From: Xanthomonas sp.
GTDB taxonomy: Bacteria; Pseudomonadota; Gammaproteobacteria; Xanthomonadales; SZUA-5
NCBI GenBank assembly: GCA_020693165.1
Contig: JAIMJQ010000001.1
Coordinates: 142-64,141, forward strand
Length of the DNA stretch: 64,000 nt
Direction: 5' to 3'
Every line of letters begins with the position of its first letter. The stretch's first letter is position 1. Of this stretch, positions 17,839 through 55,943 are shown piece after piece. Position numbers and translations under genes: made by a program. Below the pieces are notes generated by a model. It saw only the letters and a list, made by a program, of their open reading frames with translations. It was not told where the DNA came from and made no database searches.

Positions 17839-17912
17839 TGGGAGATCGTCCAACGGTAGGACAACGGACTCTGACTCCGTTTATCTAGGTTCGAATCCTA
17901 GTCTCCCAGCCA
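17839..17912 (+). tRNA. tRNA-Gln (anticodon CTG)
   Basis: The cloverleaf was drawn by hand. Acceptor is TGGGAGA/TCTCCCA. Anticodon stem is ACGGA/TCCGT with loop CTCTGAC. T arm is CTAGG-TTCGAAT-CCTAG. The discriminator is G with an encoded CCA. It is collinear with E. coli tRNA-Gln as remembered. Confidence 0.9.
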
Positions 17913-17963
17913 CCAACAAAAAGGCCGCCCTTGGGCGGCTTTTTTGTTGGTGGCTGGGAGACT
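17900..17963 (+). terminator. Very long hairpin (31 bp) combining an intrinsic terminator with a reverse-complement copy of the tRNA-Gln 3' end
   Basis: 17900-17930 (agtctcccagccaccaacaaaaaggccgccc) pairs with 17933-17963 (gggcggcttttttgttggtggctgggagact), giving 30 Watson-Crick pairs plus one G-T. The core GCCGCCC..GGGCGGC followed by a T6 run looks like a rho-independent terminator. Confidence 0.75.
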
Positions 17964-18111
17964 GGGTGAGGCCCTGGACAGGTTCGATCAGGAGCACCAG
18001 TCCCGGAGAGCGCGTGCACGGCGCGCAGCCCGGAGTGGGGGGCAGGAAGACCTCTACCGTTCGCCTTGCAGGTTTGCTACGGTGCCCGGCCACGAATCGC
18101 GGAGTGCAGTC

Positions 18112-19263
18112 ATGGGTCTTTTGCAGGCGGTGGCGGGTTCGATCGGCGGTACGCTGGCCGACCAGTGGAAGGACTTCTACACAGTTCCGGACGGCTTGCC
18201 GGCGACGGCGGCGCTGTTCGCTGCGGTGCCGCGCGGCAGCAACGCCGGACGCGGGTCCAATGTCAGGTCTTCCTCGAACATCATCACCAACGGGTCGAAG
18301 ATCGTCGTGCCCGAAGGCTACGGGCTGTTGCTGTTCCAGGATGGCGGGATCACTGGCTTCGTGGCCGAGCCCGGCGCTTACGAGTGGCGTTCGGACGACC
18401 TCAACTCGAAGTCGATCTTCTCCGGCGACGGCATCGTCGACTCGCTGATCACGCAGAGTTGGGAGCGCTTCAAGTTCGGCGGCCAGCCGGGTTCGCAGCA
18501 GGCGGCGTTCTTTGTCTCGCTGAAGGAGTTGCCCGACAACCGCTTCGGCACGCAGTCGGAAATCTACTGGGACGACGGCTTTCTCAATACCCAGGTCGGC
18601 GCGGTGACACGTGGCTCGTACACGCTGAAGATCGTCGATCCGATCCTGTTCGTGAAGCAGTTCGTGCCGGCCGCGTATCTGCAGCCGGGCCAGATCTTTG
18701 ATTTCACCGACATGGACAATGCTGCCGCCAGCCAGCTGTTCAACGAAGTGGTGGGTTCGCTGGCGCCGGCGTTCAGCCTGTACACCAACGACCCGTCCAA
18801 GGGCAATCGGATCACCAAGCTGCAGCAGGATTCGATCGGTTTCGCCCGCAGCTTGTCCGCTGCGGTGGAGAATGCCTACCAGTGGAAGTCCGATCGCGGC
18901 CTGGTCATCGCCAAGACCGCCATTGTTTCGATCGAGTACGACGCCAACACGCGGGAACTGCTGAAGACGGTGCAACGCGCCGATGCGCTGTCCGGTGCGC
19001 GCGGCAACTCCAATCTGCAGGCCAGCGTCGCGGCAGGCATCCAGTCGGCGGGCGAGACCAGCGGTGCGGCGGGCGTCATCGGCATCGGCATGGCGAGCGG
19101 CATGCTCGGCGGCATCGGCGGCTTGCAGCAGCCGGTGGCGCCAACTGCGCCGGCCGCAGAAGACCCGATCACCAAATTGAAGAAGGCCAAGGAGATGCTC
19201 GATATGGGCTTGATCACCCAGGCCGACTATGACGCCGTCAAAGCCAAGGCTTTGGGTCTCTGA
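18112..19263 (+). CDS. SPFH/Band-7-like protein of the YdjI / 'virion core protein'-like family with a C-terminal SHOCT domain
   Basis: ATG 18112 is preceded by GGAG. MGLLQAVAGSIGGTLADQWKDFY...IVVPEGYGLLLFQDG is typical of this family as I recall it. The C-terminus ITKLKKAKEMLDMGLITQADYDAVKAKALGL is a SHOCT-type short oligomerisation motif. Confidence 0.75.
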   Translation: MGLLQAVAGSIGGTLADQWKDFYTVPDGLPATAALFAAVPRGSNAGRGSNVRSSSNIITNGSKIVVPEGYGLLLFQDGGITGFVAEPGAYEWRSDDLNSKSIFSGDGIVDSLITQSWERFKFGGQPGSQQAAFFVSLKELPDNRFGTQSEIYWDDGFLNTQVGAVTRGSYTLKIVDPILFVKQFVPAAYLQPGQIFDFTDMDNAAASQLFNEVVGSLAPAFSLYTNDPSKGNRITKLQQDSIGFARSLSAAVENAYQWKSDRGLVIAKTAIVSIEYDANTRELLKTVQRADALSGARGNSNLQASVAAGIQSAGETSGAAGVIGIGMASGMLGGIGGLQQPVAPTAPAAEDPITKLKKAKEMLDMGLITQADYDAVKAKALGL

Positions 19264-19268
19264 GCAGC

Positions 19269-20576
19269 ATGTCGAATGCCATTCCGCCACCACCGCCCCC
19301 GCCTTCTGGTCCGGGGTCGCCGCAGGACGTGCCGCCACTGCCGGGCAGCTTTCCGATCGACCCGGCGACGCTGCCCAAGGCGATCCGCGATGAACTCGAG
19401 GCGCCCGATCCGGTCGCTATCGACACCTCGGCCGCCGAGCTCAAGGATGGCCTCAACCACTGCCCGAAATGCGGCGCGAGCGACATTCGCCACAAGCCCG
19501 GCAGCGACCTGCTGATCTGCGCTTACTGCCGCAATGAGTGGCATGGCGAACGGGTCGAGGAGGCGTTCGGTTTTGGCGAGGGCATCGAGGACCTCACCGG
19601 CACCGTGGTCGCGTCCGGCGCGCGCGACATCGCGGCCGATGCCGCCAGCCTGATCAGCTTCAAGTGCAACGGCTGCGGCGCCGAAGTGACGGTCAACACC
19701 GAAAGCACGATGACTGCGCGCTGCCACTGGTGTCGCCACGTCTTCGGCGTCAACGAGCAGGTGGCCAACGGCGCGGTGCCGGACGCGGTGCTGCCGTTTC
19801 ACATCAAGAAGGACGACGCGGTCGCGCGTATTCGCCAGTTCGTCGACAAGCGGCGATTGTTTGCGCTGAAGGCCTTCAAAGAGGAGTTCACTCCGGAGAA
19901 CGTCGTCGGCGTCTACTTGCCCTACATGATTGTCGACGGCAAGCTGCGGGCGGTCGTCGACGGCCAGGGCGAGATCGAGACGCGCCGTTACTCCACGGGC
20001 AGCGGTAACGACAAGAAGACCTACTACGATGCCGATGTGTACCGGGTGGAGCGGCAGGTGGACTTCACCGTGGACGATTTGACGCTGGAGTCCTCCAGCG
20101 AGCGCGGCAACCTCGACGCTCGCGCCAACACCAACAACATCATCAACACCATCCTGCCGTTCGACACCAAGAACGCGGTGAAGTGGAACGCGTCGTACCT
20201 GTCCGGCTACACCTCGGAAAAACGCGACCGCGACGTCGAGCACCTGCGCCCGCGGCTGGAAGACCAACTGCTGTCGATCGCTCGCGCGCAGGTCGCCGAA
20301 TCGGTGCGGCAGTACGATCGCGGCGTACGCTGGGAGCGCGAGGGCATCACCATTCACGGCACGCGCTGGGTAGCGATGTACCTGCCGGTATGGCTGTATT
20401 CGTATCACCAGCAGGGCACGAACGGCGGCCTGCTGCACTACATCGCGGTGAACGGCCGCACCGGCGAGACCATGGGCAGCGTGCCGGTGCAGCAGTGGAA
20501 GCTGCTGACCGCCGCGCTGACCGTCGGCACCTTCCTCGAAGGCATCGCACTCTGGATTCTGGCGACCCAATCATGA
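19269..20576 (+). CDS. Double zinc-ribbon (TFIIB-type) membrane-anchored protein, YdjG-like
   Basis: There is a Pro-rich N-terminus and two CxxC..CxxC ribbons (CPKCG...CAYC; CNGCG...CHWC). Also present are the conserved YLPVWLYSY...YIAVNGRTGETMGSVP block and a C-terminal TM segment (LLTAALTVGTFLEGIALWILA). It starts 5 nt after the SPFH gene. Confidence 0.7.
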   Translation: MSNAIPPPPPPPSGPGSPQDVPPLPGSFPIDPATLPKAIRDELEAPDPVAIDTSAAELKDGLNHCPKCGASDIRHKPGSDLLICAYCRNEWHGERVEEAFGFGEGIEDLTGTVVASGARDIAADAASLISFKCNGCGAEVTVNTESTMTARCHWCRHVFGVNEQVANGAVPDAVLPFHIKKDDAVARIRQFVDKRRLFALKAFKEEFTPENVVGVYLPYMIVDGKLRAVVDGQGEIETRRYSTGSGNDKKTYYDADVYRVERQVDFTVDDLTLESSSERGNLDARANTNNIINTILPFDTKNAVKWNASYLSGYTSEKRDRDVEHLRPRLEDQLLSIARAQVAESVRQYDRGVRWEREGITIHGTRWVAMYLPVWLYSYHQQGTNGGLLHYIAVNGRTGETMGSVPVQQWKLLTAALTVGTFLEGIALWILATQS

Positions 20577-20830
20577 GCGACGACAATGGACTGTTTTTGC
20601 TGCTGCTTGGCCCCGCCGCCGCCACCGGCCTCTACTGGAGCCTGTACCGGCATTATCGCAACACCGACAAATCCCATGCTTTCGAACGCGAAACCATCGT
20701 GAATGCCCAGCCGGTCACCGGCTCGGACGACAAGGTTGGCGAGGTGAAAGGAACGCGGGATTCGAGGATCAGCGGCGACAACGTGCATGCGTACCGCCAG
20801 CGCGTGCAGCGCAGGCAGGTCGATACCTGA
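20573..20830 (+). CDS. Small membrane protein (85 aa), hypothetical
   Basis: The internal ATG at 20573 forms an ATGA overlap with the stop of the zinc-ribbon gene. One N-terminal TM segment (LFLLLLGPAAATGLYWSLY) is present. No family is recognised. Confidence 0.5.
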   Translation: MSDDNGLFLLLLGPAAATGLYWSLYRHYRNTDKSHAFERETIVNAQPVTGSDDKVGEVKGTRDSRISGDNVHAYRQRVQRRQVDT

Positions 20831-21593
20831 GGCAAGCGTTCGCCCGATCGGCGCGTTGGCTGACGACCGGCGTCTGCATCCGGGTCCTTGTTGGCGGCGG
20901 CCTTGTCGTATAGCCCGCCAGCTCCTCCTCCACCGACCACACGACCTTGCGCGCGCAGGTCGATCCGACGCCTGGCACTGCGCGCAACTCGGATTCGGCG
21001 GCAGCCATCACCGCACGCACGCTGCCGAAGTGGTCCAGCAGGCGCGCGGCGCGCTCCGGTCCGATGCCGGGCAGGCCCTGCAGCAGGCGCAGTGGCAGAC
21101 CGCGCTTGCCTCTGGGTCGCACTCGCATCCTCGGGAGCCCGCCGTCTGCAATCGTTTCTCTCTGGTTGGCGATGCTCTCCAGCAGTTGCGCCGATTCGGT
21201 GGCGTTGGTCGACCGCAACACGGGAATTCCGAAAAACACCGAGACGGTGGCCAGTGCGGCGCGCATGGATGCGCCGGTCATCTTCGAGTCGCGCAGATCG
21301 GCGGTGGTGCCTTCGATCAGCAACGCGCACACCCCGGTGGAAGCACTCGCGGGGGAGCGTCGCTTGACTACGGATGCGAGGCGAAGGGTCTGCCGAAACA
21401 GGCGCCCATCCTTGATCGACGCCGCGAGGTCGACAAGCGACTTGCGCTCGATCAGGATGCGGTCATCGATCAGGTAGTCGCCGAAGTCGAGCTGCGCAAA
21501 GGCAGTCGACCAGGCGGGGTTGGCTGCCAGTCGACCAGCCAGCTCGCTGCGGGACTCGCGATGGTCGATACGCAGTGAATGCGTCCGGTACAT
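20769..21593 (-). CDS. ERCC4 (XPF/Mus81-type) nuclease domain protein with C-terminal (HhH)2
   Basis: The intact nuclease signature GDYLIDDRILIERKSLVDL (GDxnERKx3D) is followed by DGRLFRQ and a helix-hairpin-helix LLQGLPGIGPERAARLLDHFGS...LRAVPGVG. The start is taken at ATG 21593, whose SD spacing is poor, so the start is uncertain. The Arg-rich C-terminal ~55 aa may be an overrun. Confidence 0.75.
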   Translation of the reverse strand: MYRTHSLRIDHRESRSELAGRLAANPAWSTAFAQLDFGDYLIDDRILIERKSLVDLAASIKDGRLFRQTLRLASVVKRRSPASASTGVCALLIEGTTADLRDSKMTGASMRAALATVSVFFGIPVLRSTNATESAQLLESIANQRETIADGGLPRMRVRPRGKRGLPLRLLQGLPGIGPERAARLLDHFGSVRAVMAAAESELRAVPGVGSTCARKVVWSVEEELAGYTTRPPPTRTRMQTPVVSQRADRANACLRYRPACAARAGGTHARCRR

Positions 21594-21729
21594 CTCCTGA
21601 GTCCCCCGGGTGATGGCGGGAATCCAGAGTTCCCACCTGCGCACGGGTTGCAGGCAAGCTGTCCGGACTGCTGAACCGCGTGCTCCGCCCTTCCACGCAG
21701 CGTCGCGATGGAGCCTTGCGACGCTTTGC

Positions 21730-22233
21730 TCAGGGTGAACGGTCCTGGGGGTTGGTCCCGAGCTCAAAGTACGGCAGCAGCGCCTTGGCCGCTTCGATCC
21801 GCAGCGCCAGTGCGACACTGTCGTCGTTCATGATCTGCAGCAGGAATTGCCTGGGGGCGAGGCGCGTCGTTGCGGCCGCGGGCAGGGCGGGCGGGAGGTC
21901 GATTGCGCTGGGCGGCGTTGCGGTCACGCGTGCATCGAGGCGCTCCAGCGCGGCGTCGAATGCCGACGGCGGGATGCTGGCCAGAGTGCTGAGTACGCCA
22001 GCCTGACGGTAGCTGCCGGTCACGGCGAACGCGGGTGCGGGCAGTTCCAGGTCGGTCTGAACTCCACGCCACACCGTTGAACGTTGATCCCAGTCATCCG
22101 GTCGCGCCAGTTCCAGCACCATGGCACGTGCCCTGTGCCGTTCGATCAGGGCCGTTCCCGCATCAGCGCCGGCATCGGCGGCCGGGCGCGGGAGGAACAA
22201 GCGCCGCAACTCGGTGTGCCGGCGGTCGGTCAT
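21730..22233 (-). CDS. Hypothetical protein (167 aa), Ala/Pro-rich, upstream partner of the ERCC4 nuclease
   Basis: ATG start, same strand as the nuclease gene and 136 nt upstream of it. The C-terminal motif FLLQIMNDDSVALALRIEAAKALLPYFE resembles motifs I associate with phage/ICE small proteins (weak recollection). Confidence 0.5.
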   Translation of the reverse strand: MTDRRHTELRRLFLPRPAADAGADAGTALIERHRARAMVLELARPDDWDQRSTVWRGVQTDLELPAPAFAVTGSYRQAGVLSTLASIPPSAFDAALERLDARVTATPPSAIDLPPALPAAATTRLAPRQFLLQIMNDDSVALALRIEAAKALLPYFELGTNPQDRSP

Positions 22234-22470
22234 CGGCGGCTCTTCGCCAGCGCGGGGCGCGCCATTGGAAAGATCTCCTGGAAGGAAACAGCACGCGGCG
22301 CTGCCGCCGCCGGCCGGCTCGGAATTGGCGCACCTTCAACTCGCGGTCATCCACCAGTCGGGTGTTTCTGCTGTGATTCATGCGATCACCGGCGACTGCA
22401 ATCGGTTGTGCCGAGCAGCGCGAAATGCCAACCTGCCGCGCATCGGCCGGCTTGGTCATCAACCGGGCCG

Positions 22471-22836
22471 ATGGTCCTCGGCTACCGGGCAGTTGTATCT
22501 GGCGCGGCTGTTGCGGCAAATCGAAGACCAGCAGTTCGGCTCGCTCTCCCTCCGGGTTTGACCAGCCTGCTGCTGGTTGCCACCGCCGCAACCGCCGACG
22601 ACACGAACAGCAAGACCATCGAGGGATACGACGGCCCAGTGACGGTGACCTGGGGACAGCCGGCGCCGTTGCCTGATCAGGGTCGGCCGATCTTCGACGA
22701 ACTGGACGCCGACAACGATGGCCGGCTGCTGCCGGAGGAGACCGCATCGCACCGAGTGCCGCACAGCGCCTTCATTTGCGCCGATGCCAATCGCAATGGC
22801 GCGATCAACAAGTCAGAGCTGGAGCGCTGGGACTGA
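22471..22836 (+). CDS. EF-hand calcium-binding protein, probably exported
   Basis: Two canonical EF-hand loops, DADNDGRLLPEE and DANRNGAINKSELE, with a hydrophobic LTSLLLVATAATA segment before them. The start is uncertain (ATG 22471 chosen; the track ORF starts at 22084). Confidence 0.6.
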   Translation: MVLGYRAVVSGAAVAANRRPAVRLALPPGLTSLLLVATAATADDTNSKTIEGYDGPVTVTWGQPAPLPDQGRPIFDELDADNDGRLLPEETASHRVPHSAFICADANRNGAINKSELERWD

Positions 22837-22902: not shown

Positions 22903-25587
22903 CTACTCGAACCCATCCCCGAACAGCGCGTCGGTGATGCTGAGCGTGAACTCGCGCGTCTCGATCGCGCCGCAGGTGTCGCCGGTGCTGACGCGGATGG
23001 TGTACTCGCCGATCGGCGTGGCCGCGCCCACATTGACGGTCACCACGCCCGCCGCATCGATGCCGACGCTGCCGCCGCCGGGCAGGGTGGTGGGCTCGAC
23101 GCCGGTGCCGCTCAAGTTGTCGTTGCCGTCGGCCGGCGGCGCGCTCGGCGTGACGTCGATGCTGCCCGCGGCCGGTGGCATGCTGACGTTGGCATAAGTT
23201 CCCAGGGTCGGCGTCAGGTTGCGCCCGACATTCACGTTGACCAGCGCGGTGCTGACCGAACCGCCGCTGTCGAGGACCACCAGCGTGACGGGGTAGACGC
23301 GCGATCCGCTGCTCGGCGCCACCAGGGTGCACTCCGCGGTGGCCGAGAGCGTCACCGTGCCGCCATCGTTGGCCACGGTGACGATCAACTCCGGCGGTGC
23401 GCCGCTGTCGTCGACCACCAGGCTGCCGGCTGGGTCCTGGGTGTCGCTCACCGTCGCAACCGGGCCGGTGGTGGTCGGTGAGCCTTGCCGGGTGGTCACC
23501 GAGCCGTTGACGACCAGGGTCGGTGGGGTGTTCGTACCGGTAATCGCAAAGTTGGCGTCGGATATGTCGAAATAGACGTTGTCGACCGCGGCGATGCGCA
23601 CGCGCGCGCTGTTGGTCGCGGGGATGTCGGCGGGCACGAGGAAATCCGCGCTGCCGTCGTTGGCGGTCTGCAGCGAGTACGGGTAGCTCTGGCCGCCGTC
23701 CAGCGACAGCGAGATCTGCACCTGGCTGGTGTTGATCGGCGCGGCGTTGGTCCCGGCAACGTCCCAGGTGATCGTTTGGGTGCTTCCCGCGGCCCAGGAG
23801 ACCGCCGTGTTCGGCGCGGTGACGCGGAACGGGCCGGCCGCCGTGGTCACCGTGAGCAGCGTCGACGCTTCATTGGTGCCGCCGCCGCCGGCGCGATTGT
23901 CGCGTGCAGTGACGCGGAAATTGAGCGCACGATTGGTGCTGGGCAGGACTTCGCCGGTGAAGAAGGCGGGCGTGGTGGTGCCGGGCTGAGGCGCGGTGGC
24001 CGGCACGGCGTTGGCGTTGTTGAGGATGTAGCGCAGGCTCGGGAACACGCGCGTCGGGTCGACCGTGGGAATGAAGCTGCGGAAGATCGGCCGCGCGCCA
24101 TCGTCCACCAGCACGCCGGCCGGGTTCGCTGGCCCGAGGTCGTACTGTTCCCAGATATAGGTGAGGCTGTCGCCGTCTGTGTCGTTGCCGGTTGCCGCGA
24201 GTTCGAATGGGGTCAATTGCGGAATCGTGAATGCCGCCGCCGTGGTCACCGTCGGCGGCGTGTTTCCGGTGGCGCTGGTGGCGCCGCAGCTGGAACCACC
24301 GCCAGTGGTGGTGAAAGCCAGCATCTGATCGAGGCTGCGGCGATGGAAGTAATCCTCGCTGTTGTCCTGCAGGTCGTCGGCGCCGCAAATGCCGGCGTAG
24401 GCCTGGATGGTGAGGCCGCTGCCGGGTTCATAGGCGCTGGTCGGGCTGCGGTTGCTGCCTGCACAGTTGCCGCCGGAGCCGTTGAAGGTGTGCGCTCCGC
24501 CGTACTGATGACCGATCTCGTGGGCGACAAAGTCGATATCGAAGGTGTCGCCCACCGGTGAGCCGAGGCCGGTGACGCCGCGCGCCTTGCCGCTGGCCGA
24601 GCACACCGATTGCAGCGTGGCGACGCCGCCACCGCCGGTGCTGACCACATGCCCGATGTCGTAGTTGGCGCTGCCGATGACGTTGGTCAGGTTGGTCTGG
24701 TTTTGCCCCAGCATGGCGCTGCCGCTGTTGTTGGTGTAGGGGTCGGTGGTGCCGTCGGTGTAGATGATCAGGTCATTGTTGGCGATCAGTTCCATGCGCA
24801 CCGCCAGCTCGCGCTCGTAGATGCCGTTGACCCGGTTGACGGTGGTGGCGATTGCCGCCAGGCCGTCGGCCACGGTGCCGCCGTGAAACGCCGTGTATTC
24901 GCCGGTGGCGGCCATCGCCAGCCGGTGCGTGCGCAGGGTGGCGCCGGAAACGACGGCCGGACTCACGCCGCGCTTGGAGAAATCGGGCAGGTCCTCAGGC
25001 AGCGCCTCGCCGGTGACTTCGCAGACTGGACGCTGACCCTGCCGTTGCGCGTCGCGCTTGTGATACACCATCGCATGCCCGGTATCGCCGGGCTGCAGCG
25101 GGTCGATCAGCACGGTGCCGCGCCAGGAGATGACCTGCGCGTGGAAGCCCTTGTGGCTGACGTCGAGGCGCACGGTTGCGGTCGGGTCGCTGATGCCCTG
25201 ACCCATCCAGCTGCGAATCTGCGGATAACGGGCAGCCAACTCGGGCGCCATCACCGGCGACTCGACGATGCGGAAGTCTTCGAAGCGACCGTCCGGCAGC
25301 GGCAGTTGCAGCGTGGCGGGGCTGCGCGACACGGCGACGCTGGACTCGTCAGGCGCAAACGCCAGCACGCGGTCGAGCGCGGCGGCATCGATGCGCAGGG
25401 TGCGGTAGTGCAGCGGCATGACGCTGCGCGCAGGTGCCGGCATCGAGCGCTGGGGATTGCCCTCGCCGAGGTCCGTCCAGATGCCGTCGCGCGACGGGTT
25501 GGCATGCGCCGAGACAGCGCAAAGCAGGGTCAGCAGGGCGGCAGCCACGCGCAGCGGGCTGCGCAATTCGGGGCAGGGTGCGGGCAT
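22903..25587 (-). CDS. Secreted zinc metalloprotease, reprolysin/metzincin-like (HExxHxxGxxH), with a long C-terminal beta-rich region
   Basis: 894 aa with a signal peptide (LRVAAALLTLLCAVSAHA) and the catalytic motif HEIGHQYGGAH. The C-terminal ~450 aa are T/G/V/A-rich and repetitive. Confidence 0.85.
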   Translation of the reverse strand: MPAPCPELRSPLRVAAALLTLLCAVSAHANPSRDGIWTDLGEGNPQRSMPAPARSVMPLHYRTLRIDAAALDRVLAFAPDESSVAVSRSPATLQLPLPDGRFEDFRIVESPVMAPELAARYPQIRSWMGQGISDPTATVRLDVSHKGFHAQVISWRGTVLIDPLQPGDTGHAMVYHKRDAQRQGQRPVCEVTGEALPEDLPDFSKRGVSPAVVSGATLRTHRLAMAATGEYTAFHGGTVADGLAAIATTVNRVNGIYERELAVRMELIANNDLIIYTDGTTDPYTNNSGSAMLGQNQTNLTNVIGSANYDIGHVVSTGGGGVATLQSVCSASGKARGVTGLGSPVGDTFDIDFVAHEIGHQYGGAHTFNGSGGNCAGSNRSPTSAYEPGSGLTIQAYAGICGADDLQDNSEDYFHRRSLDQMLAFTTTGGGSSCGATSATGNTPPTVTTAAAFTIPQLTPFELAATGNDTDGDSLTYIWEQYDLGPANPAGVLVDDGARPIFRSFIPTVDPTRVFPSLRYILNNANAVPATAPQPGTTTPAFFTGEVLPSTNRALNFRVTARDNRAGGGGTNEASTLLTVTTAAGPFRVTAPNTAVSWAAGSTQTITWDVAGTNAAPINTSQVQISLSLDGGQSYPYSLQTANDGSADFLVPADIPATNSARVRIAAVDNVYFDISDANFAITGTNTPPTLVVNGSVTTRQGSPTTTGPVATVSDTQDPAGSLVVDDSGAPPELIVTVANDGGTVTLSATAECTLVAPSSGSRVYPVTLVVLDSGGSVSTALVNVNVGRNLTPTLGTYANVSMPPAAGSIDVTPSAPPADGNDNLSGTGVEPTTLPGGGSVGIDAAGVVTVNVGAATPIGEYTIRVSTGDTCGAIETREFTLSITDALFGDGFE

Positions 25588-55867: not shown

Positions 55868-55943
55868 TGGGGCGTCGCCAAGTCGGTAAGGCACGGGTTT
55901 TTGATACCCGCATTCCTAGGTTCGAGTCCTAGCGCCCCAGCCA
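55868..55943 (+). tRNA. tRNA-Gln (anticodon TTG)
   Basis: Hand-drawn cloverleaf. Acceptor is TGGGGCG/CGCCCCA. Anticodon stem is CGGGT/ACCCG with loop TTTTGAT. T arm is CTAGG-TTCGAGT-CCTAG. The discriminator is G with an encoded CCA. Confidence 0.9.

Follow-up and report, generated by a model that had tools for sequence, protein, structure and literature searches.

The locus described here raises the question of whether two neighbouring bacterial genes work together. It lies in a 64,000-nucleotide stretch of a Xanthomonas sp. assembly (GCA_020693165.1, contig JAIMJQ010000001.1, positions 142 to 64,141; hereafter the window), where a gene for a 274-residue ERCC4-domain nuclease and a 167-residue open reading frame (ORF) upstream of it are both on the minus strand, co-oriented and 136 bp apart. 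The initial annotation of this DNA read the two as an active XPF/Mus81-type nuclease paired with a protein of no recognisable domain, in a candidate two-gene DNA-processing or defence module. Our analysis leads to a different reading of the pair: the nuclease is probably a solo homodimeric flap/fork endonuclease for DNA repair, and the upstream ORF a broken gene of an AEP-like family that is no partner to it.

Profile, PDB-sequence and fold searches concurred that the 274-residue protein is an XPF/Hef-type nuclease with an intact catalytic signature and a tandem helix-hairpin-helix region, (HhH)2, as had first been proposed. Pfam ERCC4 (PF02732) matched with 79 bits against a cut-off of 24 (E-value 4.1e-22) over profile positions 1-139 of 140, and the (HhH)2 was recognised by the Pfam profiles HHH_5 (E-value 2.9e-11) and HHH_2 (E-value 1.7e-07). 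The best NCBIfam match was to the nuclease end of Hef (model residues 569-776, E-value 3.6e-39), followed by archaeal Xpf (E-value 2e-20); the equivalog cut-offs of both models were missed (73 vs 300 bits for archaeal Xpf, NF040956, and 134 vs 610 bits for Hef, NF010337), and judged by these profile scores the protein is a relative of the curated archaeal Xpf/Hef equivalogs that stands outside them. When PDB sequences were searched with phmmer, residues 9-217 aligned to Aeropyrum pernix XPF (2bgw/2bhn) with an E-value of 1.3e-20, the Hef nuclease domain and human XPF being the next matches; the (HhH)2 aligned with the HhH2 of A. pernix XPF and of Hef (1x2i), and the A. pernix motif GDYLVSDSIIVERKTSSD aligned with the window signature GDYLIDDRILIERKSLVD. 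An AlphaFold2 model built from 24 family sequences had a predicted local distance difference test (pLDDT) score of 82 overall and above 90 across both domains (most of the ERCC4 domain), with five helices at residues 165-222 in the (HhH)2 region. Foldseek matched this model best to A. pernix XPF (2bgw_B; E-value 7.8e-17, 29-30% identity); the Hef nuclease domain (1j22/1j24) matched with a template modelling (TM) score of 0.85-0.87, a root-mean-square deviation of 2.7-2.8 Å and 34% identity, and FANCM-FAAP24, Mus81-Eme1 and XPF-ERCC1 followed at lower ranks (E-values 1e-10 to 1e-8). No different nuclease fold emerged from the profile and structure searches. The ERCC4 domain begins at residue 9 of the 274, and an N-terminal superfamily 2 (SF2) helicase or helicase-like domain is absent; the protein is a stand-alone short XPF, consisting of ERCC4 plus (HhH)2, with the crenarchaeal architecture.

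The gene has also been kept intact. The alignment of 24 family sequences contains 42 invariant columns, all of which are kept in the window copy, including an N-terminal D-x-R-E (D10, R12 and E13), and the signature residues G38, D39, Y40, D43, E49, R50, K51 and D55 are invariant among the 24 sequences. The ratio of nonsynonymous to synonymous substitution rates (dN/dS) against the homologues at loci L001 and L013 was 0.21-0.29, and the window ERCC4 gene is under purifying selection. We consider ATG 21593 the most likely true start, as it is the start in the homologues P0001 (93% identical), P0003 and P0010 (74-76% identical) and is also the one called on four contigs in which the upstream ORF is present in identical form; one of these belongs to the metagenome-assembled genome GCA_017973915.1, whose gene order matches that of the window. 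Beyond the (HhH)2, W219 and Y228 are invariant columns of the alignment, the tyrosine falling in a segment predicted to be disordered (pLDDT below 50 at residues 226-231), and one might speculate that the W219...Y228 motif docks a partner other than PCNA. The last 46 residues are not conserved, this tail aligning solely with that of the 93%-identical P0001.

The 167-residue ORF product had no match in Pfam, NCBIfam or PADLOC, and the earlier statement that it lacks a recognisable domain holds for the window copy; the protein is unrecognisable because its domain was excised by a deletion. Its homologues form 1,327 clusters at an E-value of 1e-3 or less, nearly all of 230-290 residues (at 90% identity the parent family comprises at least 1,300 clusters), and they align with the window protein in two blocks only, 92 codons being missing relative to all homologues. 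In a DNA alignment with the intact gene of L001 the window ORF has a clean in-frame gap of 276 bp (92 codons), and the lost segment in L001 is bordered by a 12-13-bp direct repeat, CCGGCA(G/A)CGACGG. Short direct repeats at deletion borders are the usual footprint of microhomology or slippage deletion, and a microhomology-flanked event of this kind would have left the remnant seen here. The gap corresponds to residues 74-165 of the full-length homologue P0128 and holds 11 of the 26 invariant family positions; in the model of a full-length member (pLDDT 81.6) the deleted segment makes up three of the five strands of at least three residues, together with several helices, and on this model the deletion took out the core of the fold. 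The 167-residue ORF is a remnant of an internally deleted gene of a ~250-residue AEP (Prim-Pol)-like family, and it has presumably lost its function. The remnant is 100% identical on eight contigs from several assemblies and is fixed in the window lineage. Its retained parts have a dN/dS of 0.28-0.38 against L001, a value that says nothing about when function was lost, since the branch lies mostly before the deletion.

The parent family has no Pfam or NCBIfam model, and its assignment comes mainly from structure. Full-length members occur at L179:6001-6669 and L001:10001-10777, besides P0128. The best Foldseek match of the full-length P0128 model was to the Prim-Pol domain of CAPP from Marinitoga (7p9j/7nqe; probability 1.0, E-value 2e-4, TM score 0.5-0.58), with further matches to the LigD polymerase domain and to N-terminal primase domains of phage primase-helicases in BFVD. 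Profile searches gave weak, sub-threshold matches to Pfam AEP-TOTE, PADLOC PrimPol and NCBIfam PrimPol_Msp, the PrimPol matches covering residues ~59-103 and falling far below the cut-offs, and a sequence-profile search of the family against the PDB returned nothing at an E-value of 10 or less. Compared with CAPP and the AEPs, motifs I (DxD), II (SGxGxH) and III (hD) were not evident when the alignment of the ~250-residue family was inspected: the candidate strand has L-E-L-A, and in the motif-II region, SGSDGFALWF, the histidine is missing. The window copy further differs from those enzymes in the loss of residues 74-165. A C-terminal LRIEAAKALLPY helix motif of the family resembles terminase small subunits. 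We rejected a phage origin: a PHROG 'terminase small subunit' match (E-value 3e-05) covers a short helical motif only (residues 119-157), the family has just two C-terminal-motif matches in IMG/VR, and 50,697 phage records held no ERCC4 relative.

Outside a small clade around the window, the two families do not travel together. One genome per species (185,579 species) was scanned with the ERCC4 alignment and 80 loci were fetched with flanks of up to 10 kb per side; a profile hidden Markov model (HMM) made from 117 AEP-like family sequences found that family in none of the 80 ERCC4 loci of other genomes. In the reverse comparison, an HMM search of 80 AEP-like loci from metagenomes, 44 of them with at least 1.5 kb of sequence downstream, found an ERCC4 gene in none. 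The commonest neighbour in these 80 AEP-like loci was a convergent gene that, from a reading of its sequence, resembles a DTW-domain tRNA-modification protein, and no CRISPR linkage was seen in any of them, another difference from CAPP. An HTH_31 regulator, as found in L002-L004, was considered as a conserved upstream gene of the AEP-like family and dropped: none lay directly upstream in the 80 loci, and the three matches were distant ones, 2.7-4.1 kb from the AEP-like gene.

Within the clade, syntenic relatives were compared over the region between the EF-hand/pirin genes and the SPFH cluster/rpsI. L179 has a full-length AEP-like gene and an ERCC4 gene with nothing between them, and L001 has both genes separated by ~800 bp with two small ORFs. 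The AEP-like gene is present (after Band_7) and ERCC4 absent in L177 and L178, which carry an SNF2/SWIM helicase gene; L013 has ERCC4 and the SNF2/SWIM helicase gene, only the last ~11 codons of the AEP-like gene being detectable; and L014 has ERCC4 next to rpsI, with no AEP-like gene and nothing between. The 136-bp spacer of the window is ~80% identical by blastn in the partner-less L013, and L001 is ~700 bp longer at this point. Because all combinations of presence and absence occur in these relatives, we conclude that the ERCC4 and AEP-like genes are gained and lost independently of each other. Selection on the nuclease persists even where the neighbouring gene is broken or missing. With its partner gene not conserved beside ERCC4 homologues, the two-gene proposal fails, and the 167-residue upstream protein is not a functional partner of the nuclease. 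The helicase gene (L013:6257-9766 and L177:6803-10312, both minus strand) encodes a 1169-residue SNF2-family protein that starts with a SWIM zinc finger; in L013 the gene and ERCC4 are divergent, and in L177 it comes after the AEP-like gene. With helicase, GNAT and Fic genes, the variable locus resembles a minor hotspot of accessory genes related to nucleic acids.

How a solo nuclease of this kind might act can be drawn from archaeal enzymes. A. pernix XPF and Pyrococcus furiosus Hef are known to be homodimers that bind DNA through (HhH)2 and incise flaps and forks. By analogy, the window protein would form a short XPF homodimer held through both domains, and its (HhH)2 pair would bind the duplex DNA arms at a branch point. 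On 3'-flap, fork or nicked-junction substrates, one strand would be cut close to the junction, with D39, E49, K51 and D55 forming the putative metal site for cleavage. The least secure step is the physiological role: in the Lysobacterales clade the enzyme may act alone, as an accessory nuclease in DNA repair or in the processing of recombination intermediates. In this Lysobacterales/Rhodanobacteraceae clade the gene is chromosomal and stands beside rplM-rpsI and the SPFH cluster where the flanks are readable.

The closest known systems are the crenarchaeal short XPFs (A. pernix 2bgw/2bhn and Sulfolobus XPF), which have the same combination of ERCC4 and (HhH)2, ~215-230 conserved residues and no helicase, can be aligned with the window protein end to end and have the same GDXnERKX3D site. 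They differ in using PCNA as a cofactor, whereas the bacterial host of the window protein has no PCNA. Crenarchaeal XPF carries a PCNA-interacting peptide after HhH2, and at this position the bacterial family instead has a conserved W...EE...Y motif. The nuclease domain of euryarchaeal Hef (P. furiosus; 1j22-1j25, HhH2 1x2i) superposes on that of the window protein, but the N-terminal SF2 helicase of Hef has no counterpart in it. The same ERCC4 plus (HhH)2 module occurs in XPF-ERCC1, Mus81-Eme1 and FANCM-FAAP24, and XPF and Mus81 share the catalytic signature; these eukaryotic enzymes, however, work only as heterodimers, in which one paralogue is catalytically dead, and large additional domains set them apart. 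The window gene has no ERCC1/Eme1-like paralogue beside it, the family fold of its neighbour being AEP-like and not ERCC4.

Several points weigh against the view of a solo repair nuclease with a broken neighbour. Activity, oligomeric state and substrate of the bacterial members are extrapolated from the archaeal enzymes and may differ from them, and the PCNA that crenarchaeal short XPF requires is missing from bacteria. At least four related lineages or contigs (the window, L001, L179 and the 3.1-kb P0003/P0122 contig) have the ERCC4 and AEP-like genes side by side in one orientation, which may reflect an ancestral functional link in the clade. The open frame of the remnant, its identity on eight contigs and its dN/dS of 0.28-0.38 make it possible that the N- and C-terminal pieces still serve some function. 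Finally, ~14% of the family loci are CRISPR-linked, as described below, a hint that at least one clade does something other than general repair.

The wider family is sporadically distributed in bacteria. At least 345 of the 185,579 species-representative genomes encode an ERCC4 relative, and among 1.84 billion 50%-identity representatives there were 1,216 relatives at an E-value of 1e-10 or less and 68 at 1e-30 or less. Nearly all of the best 150 relatives are stand-alone proteins of ~175-330 residues, bar a few fragments and one protein of 506 residues. The hosts are scattered over Chromatiales, Ectothiorhodospiraceae, Rhodanobacteraceae/Lysobacterales, Betaproteobacteria, Desulfobacterales, Zetaproteobacteria, Nitrospirales and others. 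Distant relatives (~30% identity) on megaplasmids of Pseudomonas, Variovorax and Methylibium are solo genes among hypothetical proteins, and no partner gene emerged from them; a phage collection of 50,697 records held no ERCC4 relative. These counts bear out the initial description of stand-alone bacterial members as uncommon, and our literature searches brought up no biochemical work on a bacterial member, in line with their being called functionally uncharacterised. The novelty of the family was overstated, as it has not gone unnoticed: RefSeq labels its members 'ERCC4 domain-containing protein', and a Thioalkalivibrio homologue is mentioned in PMC9638904. A 2012 survey of the PD-(D/E)XK superfamily listed ERCC4 as 'Archaea & Eukaryota' (PMC3424549). 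The window gene is a further member of an already annotated, experimentally uncharacterised bacterial ERCC4 family.

Neighbours of the ERCC4 genes are specific to lineages, and include cas4-cas1, dnaK-dnaJ in a betaproteobacterial group, recQ in Desulfobacterales and toxin-antitoxin pairs of the vapC/higB type. At seven Desulfobacterales loci (L022, L027, L028, L046, L057, L058 and L070) a gene for a RecQ-type helicase lies ~65-575 bp downstream of ERCC4, the two being often separated by a small gene for a four-helix bundle (23S rRNA IVP-like), and this may be a nuclease-helicase pairing reminiscent of Hef. In Thiocapsa, a gene for a 171-residue protein without a Pfam match overlaps the start of ERCC4 by 4 bp in 6 of 8 loci, which suggests translational coupling; L017-L021, L054, L056, L060 and L064 are the loci listed with this gene upstream of ERCC4. 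The 171-residue protein is a better lineage-specific candidate for a partner than the neighbour in the window.

Roughly 11 of the 80 ERCC4 loci (about 14%) lie inside CRISPR-Cas loci, and ~86% are not CRISPR-linked. A gene for a Cas4-Cas1 fusion is found downstream on the same strand and within 5 kb in 10 of the 80 (L016, L031, L037, L039, L044, L048, L061, L077, L079 and L084, with ERCC4 at position ~10001 in most); L005, L006, L007 and L042 are listed with these ten under CRISPR-linked ERCC4 genes. The distance from ERCC4 to Cas4-Cas1 is 48-4352 bp, the stop-to-stop ORFs overlapping by ~100 bp in L079, and the linked loci also hold Cas2, type I-G Cas7 (Cas_GSU0053) and arrays with 16-76 repeats. 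The case of L061 is weak, its Cas4-Cas1 being a 256-residue fragment 4.4 kb away, and L061 falls in a dnaJ-linked clade. The Rhodanobacter copies of ERCC4 directly follow a 145-repeat array. The linkage has been noted before, though only in a figure legend: that of Figure 1 in PMC9638904 places an 'xpf-like gene (WP_012638991.1)' between csb2 and cas4-1 of Thioalkalivibrio sulfidiphilus, and a role in prespacer processing has been guessed in print for this type I-G gene. It belongs to the same bacterial family and is likewise uncharacterised; the homologue in T. sulfidiphilus ALJ17 (L016), 49% identical to the window protein, lies upstream of cas4-cas1/cas2 and a 59-repeat array.

These linkages suggest an alternative for the window gene as well, namely that the family trims 3' overhangs or flaps of prespacers for Cas4-Cas1-Cas2 and that the window copy is an orphaned adaptation accessory, either left over after the loss of a CRISPR-Cas locus or serving one elsewhere in the genome. 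We regard this as unlikely. In a neighbour-joining tree the CRISPR-linked genes are essentially one clade, L061 excepted, and the window clade (the window, L013, L001, L014, L015 and L085) is separate from it; where its flanks are known, this clade has conserved chromosomal synteny beside rpsI and no cas genes. The 64-kb window itself contained no CRISPR array by a k-mer scan or Tandem Repeats Finder, and no Cas1 or Cas4-Cas1 homologue among its ORFs, in which it differs from the T. sulfidiphilus locus. For L015, which is the closest outgroup to the window clade, an apparent array was rejected: L015:13291-13518, 2.5 kb downstream of ERCC4, looks array-like in the k-mer scan and is an ordinary ~60-bp tandem repeat in four copies with no spacers.

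A more ambitious proposal has three parts. Bacterial short XPFs would be a distinct class of flap/fork nucleases, clamp-independent or differently tethered, with the conserved disordered W...EE...Y tail replacing the PCNA-binding peptide for docking; type I-G CRISPR adaptation would have co-opted one short-XPF clade; and the ancestral Lysobacterales pair of XPF and a Prim-Pol-like protein would have been a cut-and-fill repair cassette that is now breaking up, the window having been caught after the polymerase-like half was lost. That all of this holds together seems to us distinctly unlikely.

The original idea of a two-gene module for DNA processing or anti-phage defence, in which for instance a Prim-Pol-like gap filler or sensor would work with an XPF flap nuclease, is very unlikely when the evidence is taken together. 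The adjacency of the pair in the lineages named above and the Prim-Pol-like fold of the full-length partner, a plausible complement to a flap nuclease, would fit such a module, as would the variable locus with its helicase, GNAT and Fic genes and the presence of some ERCC4 homologues in defence-rich regions. Set against these are the absence of co-occurrence in both directions beyond the clade, the independent presence and absence of the genes within it (L013, L014, L177 and L178) and the intervening ORFs of L001. The window partner lacks the fold core while the ERCC4 gene beside it is under purifying selection, and the AEP motifs DxD and SGxGxH are not evident in the partner family. Neither window protein matches a defence model of PADLOC-DB v2 at an E-value of 0.01 or less, and three ERCC4 homologues had no PADLOC match at 0.1 or less. 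That the ERCC4 gene is itself a decaying or inactive relic like its neighbour is hardly credible, for although the region shows decay (the 276-bp deletion, intergenic DNA ~700 bp shorter than that of L001, and a 46-residue non-conserved read-through tail that overlaps a convergent gene), every invariant and catalytic residue is retained, the AlphaFold2 model is confident, dN/dS is 0.21-0.29 and the ORF is full-length with its start as in the homologues.

The features of the locus are collected in Table 1. The last 62 bp of the ERCC4 gene overlap the convergent gene for an 85-residue protein, an overlap also present in the gene calls on the contigs with an identical upstream ORF. On the lower-coordinate side are this gene, genes for a 435-residue zinc-ribbon-like protein and an SPFH/SHOCT protein, tRNA-Gln(CTG) and rpsI-rplM, and on the higher-coordinate side genes for an EF-hand protein, a reprolysin-type metallopeptidase and an FHA-SpoIIE phosphatase. 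A scan of 20400-22700 for promoters and terminators found no promoter-like site, and no sigma-70-like promoter or terminator in the spacer at 21594-21729. The pair had been placed in a tRNA-adjacent accessory stretch, which is right as to the nearby tRNA-Gln(CTG) and to a gene content that varies among relatives; an integrase and an att-like repeat of the tRNA end are both missing, and GC content shows no anomaly. An island integrated at tRNA-Gln was rejected as a bounded mobile element, as no direct repeat of the tRNA 3' end occurs within 10 kb, an integrase is missing and GC content is flat, although gene content varies among relatives.

Table 1. Coordinates of features at the ERCC4 locus, in window positions
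Feature	Position	Strand	Basis or remark
ERCC4 gene, 274 residues, short XPF-type nuclease	20769..21593	-	Start ATG 21593; stop codon counted in
Maximal ORF around the ERCC4 gene, 349 residues	20769..21818	-	
ERCC4 nuclease domain, residues 9-140	21174..21569	-	Pfam PF02732 at 84-215 of the 349-residue maximal ORF
Catalytic signature GDYLIDDRILIERKSLVD, GDXnERKX3D, G38-D55	21429..21482	-	Direct sequence reading
(HhH)2, hairpins LPGIGP and VPGVGS, residues 169-218	20940..21089	-	Pfam HHH_5, HHH_2
Post-HhH2 motif WSVEEELAGY, W219...Y228	20910..20939	-	Invariant alignment columns
C-terminal tail of nuclease, non-conserved, predicted disordered	20769..20909	-	Alignment; pLDDT 42-50
Intergenic spacer, 136 bp, upstream of the ERCC4 gene	21594..21729	-	
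Upstream 167-residue ORF, internally deleted AEP/Prim-Pol-like remnant	21730..22233	-	Homologue comparison
Junction (GS/YR) of the 276-bp in-frame deletion in the upstream ORF	22006..22017	-	DNA alignment vs L001, columns 292-567
Convergent gene, 85 residues, small hydrophobic protein	20573-20830	+	
tRNA-Gln(CTG)	17839-17912		2.9 kb from the gene pair

Some further genes of the window deserve mention. Directly after tRNA-Gln(CTG), a three-gene cluster occupies 17944-20830 on the plus strand, beginning with the SPFH/Band_7 plus SHOCT protein; its 435-residue protein is proline-rich, contains two zinc-ribbon-like CxxC motifs and has a hydrophobic segment at the C terminus. The cluster is kept in L013, L177 and L179, and its 435- and 85-residue proteins have no family assignment. 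At 22903-25587, on the minus strand, is a gene for a secreted zinc metallopeptidase of the reprolysin type (M12B), 894 residues in length and with a long extension at its C terminus, adjoined by the gene for the small EF-hand protein at 22558-22836 on the plus strand. A second tRNA-Gln (anticodon TTG) is located at 55868-55943 on the plus strand, 38 kb from tRNA-Gln(CTG).

For the window locus itself these results change little: it holds a protein with a recognisable ERCC4 domain, and the proposed module dissolves. The parent family of the upstream gene, with its Prim-Pol-like fold and without canonical motifs or a Pfam model, is an uncharacterised family in its own right. With about one ERCC4 locus in seven inside CRISPR-Cas, beside cas4-cas1, the published guess of a role in prespacer processing would become directly testable. 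The bacterial short XPF family is also a reasonable biochemical target, as a minimal XPF in organisms without PCNA, and the significance of the finding lies mainly in this family as a whole, an XPF without PCNA with a CRISPR-linked clade, and less in the window locus.

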